From positions 1 to 64,000 of IMG/VR virus record IMGVR_UViG_3300029906_000002: a DNA stretch of 64,000 bases. One strand, given 5' to 3'. How positions within the stretch are numbered: position 1 is the stretch's first letter; every line of letters begins with the position of its first letter. This stretch comes from a virus. Both the position numbers and the translations under genes were made by a program. Below the pieces are notes generated by a model. That model was not told where the DNA came from, searched no databases, and saw only the letters and a program-made list of their open reading frames with translations. Positions 1,627 to 5,703 of this stretch are shown piece by piece.

Positions 1627-1813
1627 GAATCTTGATATAAAGACAATTACAAACGTGATAGACAATTCTGAATTCCCGTTTGGAGTAAAAACTTGCAAGG
1701 ATGATTTAATTATTACAGTTGCAGACAATACAGGACGAACTATCCGTTTGGATACGAACGATAATTTAAAGGTAAACTTAAACAATTTCTTGAATGGTAA
1801 AAAGAATGACTAA
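1592..1813 (+). CDS. Hypothetical protein
   Basis: 73-aa ORF overlapping both neighbours. Confidence 0.6.
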   Translation: MKLSTIVIRRSKNLDIKTITNVIDNSEFPFGVKTCKDDLIITVADNTGRTIRLDTNDNLKVNLNNFLNGKKND

Positions 1814-2147
1814 AACAACTGTAGAGAATCAGAAAGAAAGCAGCAAGGAGTTTGAGGCTTCAGTAATAACAATCAAAGAGAAGTTGACTATTAAGGTAAA
1901 GAAACTCGTTCCTGAAGCTCAACTACCCAAATACATGACCTTTGATGAAGACGGAATGGTACCGACAGCTATCGGTATGGATGTGACGGCAATAAGCGCA
2001 GAATGGCGTGACGACATCAAGACATGGGTGTATGGCACAGGTCTTGCTTTCGAGGTACCGCTTGGCTACGGCATGGTGATTACTCCAAGAAGCTCGAACA
2101 GAAAGACTGATTACTATATCCCCAACAGTCCTGGTTTGTTAGACCCT
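1806..2147 (+). CDS. dut: Trimeric dUTPase, exon 1
   Basis: Motif I (AIGMDV), GTGLAFEVP, motif II (PRSS), start of motif III (NSPGLLDP); interrupted at the predicted 5' splice site U2147. Confidence 0.85.
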
Positions 2148-2171
2148 AAAAAATATTAAACCAATAATATA

Positions 2172-2204
2172 ATTGACTACTATCTAAAAAACCTGTTATA
2201 TTTG
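2172..2204 (+). promoter_or_regulatory. Bacteroidota-type promoter inside the intron for the HNH gene
   Basis: -7 element TATATTTG (2197-2204) with ATTG 21 nt upstream; lies 25 nt before the HNH ATG. Confidence 0.6.
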
Positions 2205-2229
2205 TAGCTGAATTCTAAATGCTATAAAT

Positions 2230-2973
2230 ATGAAAAAGAAATTAGAAACTGACTATAAACTTAGAGTATGTAAACAATGTGGAAAAGAATTCCGTGTTCC
2301 AGATTACTATGGTAAAGGATTATTTTGCTCACATAAATGCTCATCAGACTATAAGAAAGGAAAACTTAATGCAGTCTGCGCTGTATGTGGTAAAAAGTTT
2401 CATGTAAAACCAAGAGTAATCAAACGGAGTAAAACCGGAAAAATTACTTGCTCTTATGAATGTGCAGGAAAATTTAGGTCAATGTATTTCACTGGAAATA
2501 AAAACGGTAATTATAGAGAATATACTTTATCCTATTATACTAACGGACAAAATAAAAATAAATACTGTTTTATTAAAATACATGGACATCCATTTGCAAG
2601 AACTTGTAAACGAGAAAAAGATTTATATCCATATCATAAATACATGGTCGAACAATATTATTTTATGTTTAACGAAAAATATTTTATTGAGTTAGACGGA
2701 AAATTTTATTTAAAACCTAAAGGAGTATGTGTTCATCATATTAATATGAATACACTTGATAATAGGATAGAAAATTTAATTCCCGTTACAAACGGAGAGC
2801 ACACAAAAATACATAATCTATTAAGATCTAATAAAACAGAAGAAGTAGTTGAATATATTAAAAAATCTGGGGTCTTTAAAGAGGGTGAATTGCTGGAAAA
2901 GCATATCAATAGTGCCAATCAGCAGCCAAGCCAACCTTTAACAAAGTTGGAAGGTTCAACGACTAACGCTTGA
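2230..2973 (+). CDS. Intron-encoded HNH homing endonuclease with N-terminal zinc fingers
   Basis: Two CxxC...CSxxC zinc-finger repeats; VHHINMNTLDNRIENL...EHTKIH HNH motif; AT-rich; the ORF runs through the IGS and ribozyme core. Confidence 0.9.
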   Translation: MKKKLETDYKLRVCKQCGKEFRVPDYYGKGLFCSHKCSSDYKKGKLNAVCAVCGKKFHVKPRVIKRSKTGKITCSYECAGKFRSMYFTGNKNGNYREYTLSYYTNGQNKNKYCFIKIHGHPFARTCKREKDLYPYHKYMVEQYYFMFNEKYFIELDGKFYLKPKGVCVHHINMNTLDNRIENLIPVTNGEHTKIHNLLRSNKTEEVVEYIKKSGVFKEGELLEKHINSANQQPSQPLTKLEGSTTNA

Positions 2974-2982
2974 AACTAAAAT

Positions 2983-3061
2983 AGGGTAAGAGGAGAATAC
3001 AGGTAAACTTGCACTGCGCTCATTACGCATGAGAGAGTTGGTTCAAATCCAACTGACCCTA
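2983..3061 (+). tRNA. tRNA-Met(CAT)-like cloverleaf, probably degenerate, nested inside the group I intron
   Basis: Acceptor AGGGTAA/TGACCCT (6/7 pairs); D arm GAG-AATACAGGTAAA-CTT with GG; anticodon arm TGCG-CTCATTA-CGCA; perfect T arm GTTGG-TTCAAAT-CCAAC. Deviations: G8, U37, 4-bp anticodon stem, no CCA. Confidence 0.6.
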
Positions 3062-3195
3062 CTTTTAGAATATAATAGCGACACGAGTGCCCTCCATTCT
3101 ATTAAGAATGATGATATAGTCTGAACTGTATAAATAATATTGATTATATGAAAATACAGAATTTAAGGATAAAGAGCCTTAAAGTTAACAAATTG

Positions 3196-3513
3196 GGATA
3201 TGGTAAGGAGTTATTTGTCAATTTCAAGCATCGCGGAATGGAGGATGACCACAAGCTGATTGCTGAGCTTACCGAGAAAATGAAGGCTATTGAAACGGCT
3301 GTGGTTAACCGTTTTCAATCGGGATTCATGGCTGCACAGCTTCGCAGCATAAGTAGAAAGTATGAGGATGCTAATTGCATACCGAATCCTCCGTATGAGA
3401 TTGGTGACCGTATTGCGCAGATATTTATCATTTCTTATCCGATTGTGGAATTTATCGAGGTTGACGAAGTAAAGGACACAAGAGGTGGATTCGGGTCAAC
3501 TGGCAGCAAATGA
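3196..3513 (+). CDS. dut: Trimeric dUTPase, exon 2
   Basis: Completes motif III (GYGKELFVNF); motif IV GDRIAQ; motif V RGGFGSTG. Confidence 0.85.
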   Translation, partial: GYGKELFVNFKHRGMEDDHKLIAELTEKMKAIETAVVNRFQSGFMAAQLRSISRKYEDANCIPNPPYEIGDRIAQIFIISYPIVEFIEVDEVKDTRGGFGSTGSK

Positions 3514-3514
3514 C

Positions 3515-3718
3515 ATGGAACCGAGATATATTATCATTCTTGATTACTCTTGCGGAGAGGTGATTAAGATTAGGCTGACTGATGAGCAACTGAAAGAATC
3601 AGAAAACTATCCTGATTTTGAATCTTACTTGTCAACACTTGAAAAGGAATACGAATTCAGATTAAAGGATTGTTGCTGGATGTGTTGCGAGAGCCTGATT
3701 GAAAGGAGTTTTCTATGA
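3515..3718 (+). CDS. Hypothetical protein
   Basis: 67-aa ORF from ATG 3515; ATGA overlap with the next gene. Confidence 0.65.
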   Translation: MEPRYIIILDYSCGEVIKIRLTDEQLKESENYPDFESYLSTLEKEYEFRLKDCCWMCCESLIERSFL

Positions 3719-4536
3719 TTATCGACATAACTAATAACTGTGACATGCAATGTCCGCATTGCATGCAGCGTAGCGAGCCTGGTAATCACTTGATGATGGA
3801 TATGGCTACCTTCATACTTGCTGTTAACTTTGCGAATAACTTAAAAGCAACGGTTATCATGTTATCTGGTGGAGAGCCTACACTGCATCCTCAACTGCGC
3901 ACATTTGTAGAAATTCTACAAGGAAGCAAGGAAGAGTTTCCGACAAGGGTTGTTTTTCTGCTTAGTAATGGTTCATTTCTGCTTGATGATAACAAAAGAG
4001 AAACCATAAGAAAATTGATAATCGATAAGAAACTGAATGGTATCCAGATAACTTCCGTTCCAAGATTATACAAGAACTGGAAGGATGTTCATGAGGAATA
4101 CAAGCAACATAAAGATGAATTCAAAGGAAAGATCATGTTGTTTTCCGATGATATCACCCGAATGAAAGACCTTGGTAGGGCGCATGATAATAGGGATATG
4201 TTCAGAGATGATTTCGATAATTCGCTTTATCCGTCATGCTTCAACGGATTCTCCATCATCAAGCAATCCGGAACGATAGATGATTTCGATGACACATCCA
4301 TTTATATGCAAAGATTCTGTTCACCTGTTGTAGATTACAAAGGTTACATACATGTTTCTGAATCTGTATGCTGTCCGTCATTTGGTCATGTTTATGGTTG
4401 CGTGTACGACAATGGCAAGAGTATGTTCGACAAGATGAAGAACGGAAAGCCTTGTGGAAAATGCTACAATTATAAGAAGTTCATGCAGCGCAATGACAGA
4501 CGTGCATTGTTAATTAAGAAAATGTTGCATATATGA
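3715..4536 (+). CDS. Radical SAM protein with Cys-rich C-terminus
   Basis: CDMQCPHC (CxxxCxxC), LSGGEPTLHP, LSNG motifs; extra C-terminal cysteines. Confidence 0.9.
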   Translation: MIIDITNNCDMQCPHCMQRSEPGNHLMMDMATFILAVNFANNLKATVIMLSGGEPTLHPQLRTFVEILQGSKEEFPTRVVFLLSNGSFLLDDNKRETIRKLIIDKKLNGIQITSVPRLYKNWKDVHEEYKQHKDEFKGKIMLFSDDITRMKDLGRAHDNRDMFRDDFDNSLYPSCFNGFSIIKQSGTIDDFDDTSIYMQRFCSPVVDYKGYIHVSESVCCPSFGHVYGCVYDNGKSMFDKMKNGKPCGKCYNYKKFMQRNDRRALLIKKMLHI

Positions 4537-4814: not shown

Positions 4815-5249
4815 ATGAAGATTGTAAACAAACTTACCGGCAAGGAACACGTAGTAACCAAGATTACTTCCAATGGTATCTTGACCGAGGATGGTCAGAA
4901 TTTCAACATGTTTGCTATTGCTAATGGCAACGTACAGATTGTTGATGATGAGAATAACGAGAACGACCCACTTATCCATCAGTTCATGGAAATGATGGCA
5001 AACGTAGCCAAGAAGCAAGCCAAAGAAGGTATTGATAAAATCAAGGAAGACCCTGAGAAGTTTAAAGAGTTCAAGAGCATTGCCGTAAAAACTATCTGCG
5101 CCCTCATTACATCTTCATCAACAGCAGAGGTTCTGTCTGGTGGTAAGGCGCGTGTGTCTGTCAATGGTCTTGTTGAGGCCGGATTCAACTACGCTAAATT
5201 AATTATGGAGAAATTCGAGGAGCTTGAAAACGATGGAGAAAGAGAATGA
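4815..5249 (+). CDS. Hypothetical protein
   Basis: 144-aa ORF with host-like codon usage. Confidence 0.7.
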   Translation: MKIVNKLTGKEHVVTKITSNGILTEDGQNFNMFAIANGNVQIVDDENNENDPLIHQFMEMMANVAKKQAKEGIDKIKEDPEKFKEFKSIAVKTICALITSSSTAEVLSGGKARVSVNGLVEAGFNYAKLIMEKFEELENDGERE

Positions 5250-5703
5250 TATAGCTGCCAGCATAGCTTCCGATAATAGCAAACGTGGGCGATTTGTAAA
5301 GATTGTACTTGATACACTTCCTGATGATATGCCTATCGCAGAGGCTGCCAGTATAGCCAACAAGGTAGCTGATTCATTCATGTTTGACGAACCTGAAGAT
5401 GCTATCAAGAATGATCGTAAGGACCATAAATTAATGTGGGAACTACTGCCGCTTGACGTCATTGAGGAAGCTGTCAGAGTGTACACGTATGGAGCACAAA
5501 AGTATGCTCCAAATTCCTGGCAGAATCTCCCTGATGGTTACAATCGCTACAAGGCAGCACTACTTAGGCACCTTACGCTGATTGACCAAGGCAAGCACTT
5601 TGATGAGGAATCAGGTCTTCTGCACGCCTCGCAAGTGCTTTGGAACGCCATAGCCCTATGCTACTTTGAGATGCAACAATTTGGCAAAGGTTCCATTAAA
5701 TAA
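5233..5703 (+). CDS. dATP/dGTP diphosphohydrolase-like (DUF5664-type) protein
   Basis: KNDRKDHKLMWELLP...VYTYGAQKYAPNSW...YKAALLRHL...DEESGLLHASQVLWNA signature. Confidence 0.8.
   Translation: MEKENDIAASIASDNSKRGRFVKIVLDTLPDDMPIAEAASIANKVADSFMFDEPEDAIKNDRKDHKLMWELLPLDVIEEAVRVYTYGAQKYAPNSWQNLPDGYNRYKAALLRHLTLIDQGKHFDEESGLLHASQVLWNAIALCYFEMQQFGKGSIK

Follow-up and report, generated by a model that had tools for sequence, protein, structure and literature searches.

Group I introns inside tRNA genes are a textbook arrangement. The locus described here shows the reverse nesting, a tRNA-like fold inside a group I intron, as the initial annotation had proposed, and several described systems resemble it in part. 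GOLLD RNAs (PMC12990946) likewise hold a tRNA within a larger phage-associated structured RNA, but in the portion of that report consulted the tRNA occupies a single-stranded junction of a non-catalytic RNA within tRNA arrays, whereas here a degenerate, exchangeable tRNA prolongs a ribozyme helix in a protein gene. The coral mitochondrial ND5-717 group I intron (PMC6545197) also contains a tRNA gene; according to the sections consulted, however, it sits there among ordinary genes, 16 in all, that fill a giant insertion in P8, with removal by back-splicing, and is not a compact module at a helix tip. ORF-bearing group I loops and IStrons (PMC3984707) resemble our intron in that peripheral loops take extra sequence with the core undisturbed, but their cargo is endonuclease or transposon DNA, and the consulted part of that paper names no tRNA-like cargo. 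The available portions of the literature also describe crAss-like phages as dense in introns (among PMC3984707, PMC7886860, PMC12990946, PMC6545197, PMC11878797 and PMC3428280). The host gene itself has a close parallel in crAssphage (Carjivirus communis, BK010471), where a GenBank-annotated dUTPase intron with the HNH gene gp35 shares the gene, the HNH ORF and a related core with ours, and the insertion point is identical, after D-x of motif III. The P7 extension of the crAssphage intron is unlike ours, with a short tip only, a different internal loop and no tRNA-like module. Our searches of the open-access literature found no description of a compact tRNA-derived module at P7.1a or of an exchangeable slot there. 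As far as these searches reach, tRNA shapes set repeatedly inside a ribozyme at one exchangeable site are not an established arrangement.

The window, by which we mean the whole 64,000-nucleotide stretch analysed, makes up the opening 64 kb of a virus record 168,622 bases long (IMGVR_UViG_3300029906_000002), and its DNA is present in chicken and bird gut metagenomes. In it the dUTPase gene of a gut phage is split by a group I intron of the self-splicing type, splicing itself being predicted from the sequence. Exon 1 (1794–2147, plus strand, as are all features of the window given here) and exon 2 (3196–3513) match PHROG 135 dUTPase at profile 135–226 and 228–291, that is, in adjoining parts of the profile, and their joining gives an open frame of 223 aa. 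The intron borders (2148–3195) follow from a P1 pairing that ends in a U·G pair at the 5' splice site, with the last base of exon 1 as its U, from the omega-G (3195) as the last intron base and from the restored dUTPase frame, a combination that marks a group I intron. The RF00028 match (2820–3142, 65.1 bits against a cut-off of 50) covers the core from P3 to P8 with its P, Q, R and S elements and handles the tRNA-like module as inserted sequence that separates P7 from P3'. Within the internal guide sequence (2865–2875), as read from the letters, 2869–2875 pairs with exon positions 2141–2147 to form P1 and 2865–2868 can pair with 3196–3199 to form P10. By the RF00028 alignment the 5' half of the core (2881–2965) comprises P3, P4–P6 and the 5' strand of P7 (GACTA, 2961–2965), and the 3' half (3086–3195) comprises P3' (GCCCTC, 3089–3094), P8, J8/7–P7' (GATATAGTC, 3113–3121) and the P9 helices.

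Between the two halves lies a single extension (2967–3080) that consists of P7.1 (CGCT at 2967–2970 with AGCG at 3077–3080), a conserved internal loop (TGAAA / AATATAAT) and P7.1a (CTAAAA at 2976–2981 with TTTTAG at 3063–3068), which bears the cargo. The intron is of IA type, and a single P7.1 with a P7.1a extension fits what we take to be subgroup IA1, so that we presume an IA1-like label. It is not IA2, a subgroup that has P7.1 and P7.2 joined by G-U-A in the consulted part of its description (PMC3428280), because our intron has one P7 extension, with P3' following after a short linker 3' of P7.1. A search for related loci with exon 1 yielded no confirmed relative. An ATG in the P9 region (3148–3195) is in frame with exon 2, and unspliced RNA could thus make a C-terminal dUTPase fragment. 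A radical SAM gene (3715–4536) and a gene with a dATP/dGTP diphosphohydrolase domain (5224–5703) lie near the dUTPase gene.

The intron also carries an HNH endonuclease ORF of 247 aa (2230–2973) in the ORF list, which matches Pfam HNH_3 (PF13392) above the cut-off with E = 1e-7 as well as PHROG HNH families. It starts in the P1 loop, passes through P3–P7 and stops at the TGA at 2971–2973 in the P7.1 internal loop, 9 nt upstream of the tRNA-like module. Among the related runs compared we found no close allele lacking the intron. A sigma70-like promoter match (2173–2202; 10/12, extended −10) lies within the intron just upstream of the ORF; promoter-like matches numbered 11 against 5.4 expected. 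The idea that the slot flanks themselves act as a sigma70 promoter was dropped on account of unsuitable spacing.

The module at the tip of P7.1a (2983–3062) reads as a tRNA-derived cloverleaf with a CAU anticodon and an N73–C74 end like that of free phage tRNA genes. All motifs on which the initial annotation had built its case are in place, namely the strands of P7, P7.1 and P7.1a given above, the T arm (3037–3053), CAT (3021–3023), G8 (2990), U37 (3024) and the acceptor mismatch A2988·G3055. RF00005 matches exactly 2983–3061; at 24.3 bits the hit falls under the cut-off of 29, but with E = 7.4e-4 it is the only one that the 168.6-kb genome yields at E ≤ 1. ARAGORN calls no gene at its default setting and a tRNA-Met at 2983–3062 at the 90% threshold, where its 32 calls genome-wide are mostly spurious. 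A check by covariance model and ARAGORN thus returns a tRNA signal, though one beneath the standard thresholds of both. The module shares with tRNAs a GG in the D loop (3002–3003), a canonical T arm with a TTCRANY loop, and U33. It departs from them in G8, U37, the mismatch in the acceptor stem, a D stem of only three pairs and an anticodon stem with a bulged C3014, and it encodes no CCA. These departures, together with the sub-threshold scores, bear out the earlier suspicion that this is not a normal translating tRNA. The dinucleotide G8–A9 (2990–2991) recurs in five related modules (L071, L100, L104, L124 and L142; related loci are numbered L and related runs X), while G8 occurs in one of 55 free tRNAs. 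A purine run at 2988–2995, considered as a competitor for P3', was dropped, as it is not conserved in L071 and L129.

The cloverleaf had been described as complete, and this holds well for the acceptor stem and the T arm and less well for the remainder. Pair probabilities computed with ViennaRNA are 1.0 for the acceptor stem and 0.89 for the T stem but 0.18 for the anticodon stem and 0.0 for the D stem, and for these last two arms the program favours a different structure by 8–12 kcal/mol; the folding z-score of 2983–3065 alone is −1.0. Comparison among relatives nevertheless supports a tRNA-like anticodon arm over the computed alternative. Run X4 differs from the window over 272 nt only by C3017T and G3027A, which form one anticodon-stem pair, and the same two changes are the sole differences between the modules of L129 and the window. 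Among the changes listed, A3013G and T3030C occur together in X3 and X7, and likewise in L071; in all three, T3030C breaks the competing hairpin while the anticodon stem is kept. When the window, L129 and L071 are aligned, 97% of cells pair, three pairs are changed on both sides and the T stem covaries, a count that is weak by itself because 19 of 500 shuffles reach it and only three sequences contribute. Further double changes occur between L104 and L124 and between L142 and L151.

Related introns were found by scanning for the sequence patterns that flank the module. Across 53 distinct stems the four P7.1 pairs are formed in 212 of 212 cells, compared with a mean of 96.5 and a maximum of 120 after shuffling. 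The commonest state of the tip is a loop of 2–32 nt, present at no fewer than 122 loci (an estimated 240 or so viral stretches), and introns with longer cargo account for 6 loci at 40–70 nt, 27 at 70–100 nt and 40 at 101–131 nt. The comparison that the initial annotation had called for, of introns with and without an insert, shows inserts that keep their stems by compensatory changes. The 27 loci at 70–100 nt were among 90 returned by that scan, the others being six short-loop introns reached through a second copy of the motif and chance matches; in a first loose scan 5 of 31 matches were introns (L002, L010, L019, L022 and L030) and the others were chance hits or free tRNA arrays. Long cargos tend to close on themselves: at least three extra pairs form between the ends of 80% of 50 cargos, compared with 20% when ends are mixed.

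Grouped by hand, the long cargos from scans blind to cargo make 35 families, of which 7 contain a T-arm hairpin (shuffled mean 0.0135; none of 2000 shuffles reaches 7), or 6 of 35 without L094, whose call used a pattern widened after that locus was seen. Others among the long cargos are mini-ORFs or other folded RNAs. Scans directed at the T loop returned eight metagenome loci and five viral loci, all of them introns; a scan of GTDB genomes with the T-loop pattern gave a single match, a chance hit in a protein gene, which we discarded. From these comparisons, the P7.1a tip is likely to be a recurrent, exchangeable cargo slot.

Several other features of the slot may be mentioned. Mini-ORF cargos (L033/L034, L043, L056, L058, L061, L120, L140, L141, L143 and L148) have their ATG 0–3 nt past the 5' flank, immediately after the TGA at which the endonuclease ORF often stops; many stay in frame through the core and several are Cys-rich. 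A search for free-standing homologues of two of these mini-ORF cargos found none. T-loop-like hairpins that depart from the consensus occur in L161 (1518–1620), L119 and L181 and are possibly more decayed tRNA relics; L161 was left out of the 35 families and of the core tree because its long P8 failed the filter. In L063 (1762–3982) a stretch of some 2 kb contains several matches to the group I core, which suggests introns that are nested or lie close together.

At least nine sequence-distinct tRNA-derived forms occupy the slot, in at least six host genes: window/L129/L071, L130/L138, L104/L124, L100/L126/L131, L142/L146/L151, L127, L128, L094 and L040. L104 passes the Rfam cut-off (33.5 bits), and L104, L124 and L130 pass ARAGORN at default; RF00005 missed L124 and L094 in their own records, and L127, L128 and L130 are not among the matches listed for it. 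The host genes include those for dUTPase (window, L127), Thy1 (L100, L131, L142), ribonucleotide reductase (L130), a DnaB-like helicase (L138), exonuclease VIII (L071, L094) and an amidoligase-like protein (L129), and HNH, LAGLIDADG or GIY-YIG ORFs lie upstream. At L138 (2519–2608, minus strand) a DnaB-like helicase gene has an intron whose P7 differs (GCATA) and which holds the L130 module between the same flanks, an indication that the slot crosses intron types. Alignment of the window module with the L130 module scores 50, under the 63.5 of the best free tRNA. A donor tRNA did not emerge: blastn searches of cultured phages with four cargos and the window module returned either no match or just weak ones in the T arm, and no free tRNA in 35 phage records scored above 34 bits with a model of the window module, compared with 90–120 bits for the sequences on which the model was trained. 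An exact-motif scan found the window module only inside an intron. Suppressor-type tRNAs with CTA and TTA anticodons occur in phages with this intron family (L308:440–512, minus strand; L308:3697–3767; L321).

The baseline was a set of 55 free tRNA genes, drawn from regions of phages in which such introns occur. U8, U33 and a purine at 37 occur together in 50 of these, a D-loop GG in all 55 and an N73–C74 end in 52, while CCA is encoded in only 3. The N73–C74 end of the window module thus points to a captured whole phage tRNA gene, by this comparison, and its missing CCA is uninformative. By our reading, not one of the nine embedded forms has U8, U33 and a purine at 37 along with a normal loop of 7 nt. 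The sister modules L104 and L124, with 78% identity, hold their stems by double changes, yet their anticodons are UAA and UGU; the closest free sequence to L104 is a tRNA-Gly(GCC), yet L104 reads UAA. In L040 the T arm beside the closing helix persists and the other arms are unrecognisable. T arms thus appear to persist while U8, U33, purine 37 and the anticodons drift, a pattern that is partly detection bias: the L127, L128 and L130/L138 forms came only from T-loop-directed scans, which makes T-loop retention partly circular, and decayed tRNAs without a T loop would fall into the class of other cargos.

The sequence comparisons further indicate that cargo moves independently of the ribozyme core. 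Cargo identity exceeds core identity in window/L129 (98% vs 64%), L130/L138 (99% vs 67%) and L100/L131 (100% vs 81%), and the discordance is reversed in L071/L094 (50% vs 85%) and L151/L120 (44% vs 94%). In contigs of close relatives the same dUTPase intron has its slot replaced by 788 (X10) or 120 (X9) other letters. Mapped on a tree of the core (146 rows), the T-arm label has to change 17 times, although this tree is short and poorly resolved and its starred branches force only 4. The 788-letter cargo of X10 could be a second ORF.

These results lead us to favour, with a probability of about 60%, the interpretation that the module is a captured phage tRNA gene in a swappable slot at the P7.1a tip, kept for its self-closing, elbow-forming fold and not for decoding. 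Cargo would be traded by recombination at the conserved flanks, between introns of co-infecting or related phages. A tRNA may be favoured as a passenger since its acceptor stem prolongs P7.1a and brings its ends together, and with the acceptor stem continuing P7.1a the core would still fold and splice. Selection would then act against misfolding, through the stem pairs and the elbow of T loop and D loop, and not on tRNA identity. The initial annotation had listed a captured relic used as a folding domain as one of three options, and it is the one that fits best. Some observations tell against a passenger kept for its fold only: CAU is common to five loci (window, L129, L071, L130 and L138), a retention not called for if the fold alone matters, G8–A9 recurs, and the computed fold is not a cloverleaf.

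RNase P and RNase Z read a T arm together with an acceptor helix, and it is possible, though we consider it doubtful, that the module serves as a signal for RNA processing. On this view its T arm, stacked on the acceptor stem, would be recognised by RNase P and/or RNase Z of the host, and cleavage of the excised intron or of the HNH transcript directly past the HNH stop would release a tRNA-like RNA, with faster intron turnover or a set mRNA 3' end as the effect. This would agree with the T arm and acceptor helix being the best-formed parts of the module, with the N73–C74 ends retained as in free phage tRNA genes, with the position of the module 9 nt behind the HNH stop (a frame of at least 100 codons ends at that TGA in 9 of 20 T-arm records) and with the promoter-like match inside the intron. 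However, ORFs end at the same TGA with other cargo too (6 of 16 mini-ORF records), promoter-like matches number 11 against an expected 5.4, and a short loop or mini-ORF serves in the slot of most relatives. Moreover, every module has its leader paired with its trailer in an extended helix, and such pairing should hinder both enzymes. A broader proposal, to which we give similarly tentative standing, is that a lineage of phage group I introns has a cargo slot with conserved, recombination-prone flanks, through which tRNA mimics and mini-genes are captured and pass between introns of different genes. The mimic of T arm and acceptor would bring host tRNA machinery to the ribozyme (RNase P, RNase Z, enzymes of tRNA modification or nucleases of defence), and in the course of infection the intron would thereby either supply a processed tRNA-like RNA or undergo turnover.

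Phage tRNAs and their mimics are known to counter tRNA-targeting defences. The initial annotation suggested a decoy, for instance against anticodon nucleases; the excised intron, as an abundant RNA, would then present a tRNA mimic that titrates these enzymes or further defence proteins that bind tRNA. This reading draws some weight from the repeated capture of tRNA shapes, from the retention of CAU over five loci and from a genome without any other tRNA by RF00005 at E ≤ 1. We nevertheless regard it as improbable. The anticodon loops are the most decayed part of the modules, with A33 in L130 and L127 and collapsed loops in L100, L128 and L094; related modules lose U33 or purine 37, and the sister modules L104 and L124 have switched anticodon altogether. 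One copy per intron in a nucleotide-metabolism gene would also make a poor source of decoys.

The second option of the initial annotation, that the module is cut or refolded in the precursor and thereby gates splicing or HNH expression, is contradicted by the free exchange of slot contents, and we rate it as very improbable. The module does break the path from P7 to P3', and its middle part has a computed alternative fold, but nearly identical introns in the same position of the dUTPase gene hold unrelated cargo, most relatives have a short loop, the HNH stop lies upstream of the module, and the alternative hairpin is lost through T3030C in X3, X7 and L071 with the anticodon stem kept. Group I cores, besides, usually tolerate a nick at the tip of a peripheral helix. 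Still harder to credit is a functional tRNA (Met or Ile2) made from the module once it is trimmed and given a CCA end: the CAU anticodon, canonical T arm and D-loop GG would suit it, its nearest free sequences are phage tRNA-Met(CAT) genes and an absent encoded CCA is normal here, but it lies under both the Rfam and the ARAGORN cut-offs and combines G8, U37, the acceptor mismatch, a three-pair D stem and a bulged anticodon stem. Chance likeness of an AT-rich insert to a tRNA, for which the sub-threshold scores and the folding z-score might be quoted, is refuted by the related loci, given the genome-wide E value, the compensatory changes and sister modules at the same slot that pass Rfam (L104) or the ARAGORN default (L104, L124, L130).

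The slot amounts to a natural experiment, in which one core is found with a short loop, a mini-ORF or nine tRNA folds, and one tRNA fold is found in different cores. It would allow tests of whether tRNA machinery acts on a ribozyme and of how peripheral RNA domains are gained and swapped. Calls of tRNA genes in phage genomes should be treated with caution, since they can fall inside introns. The slot also points to a place where a splicing ribozyme tolerates a passenger of 80–130 nt, which bears on RNA engineering.
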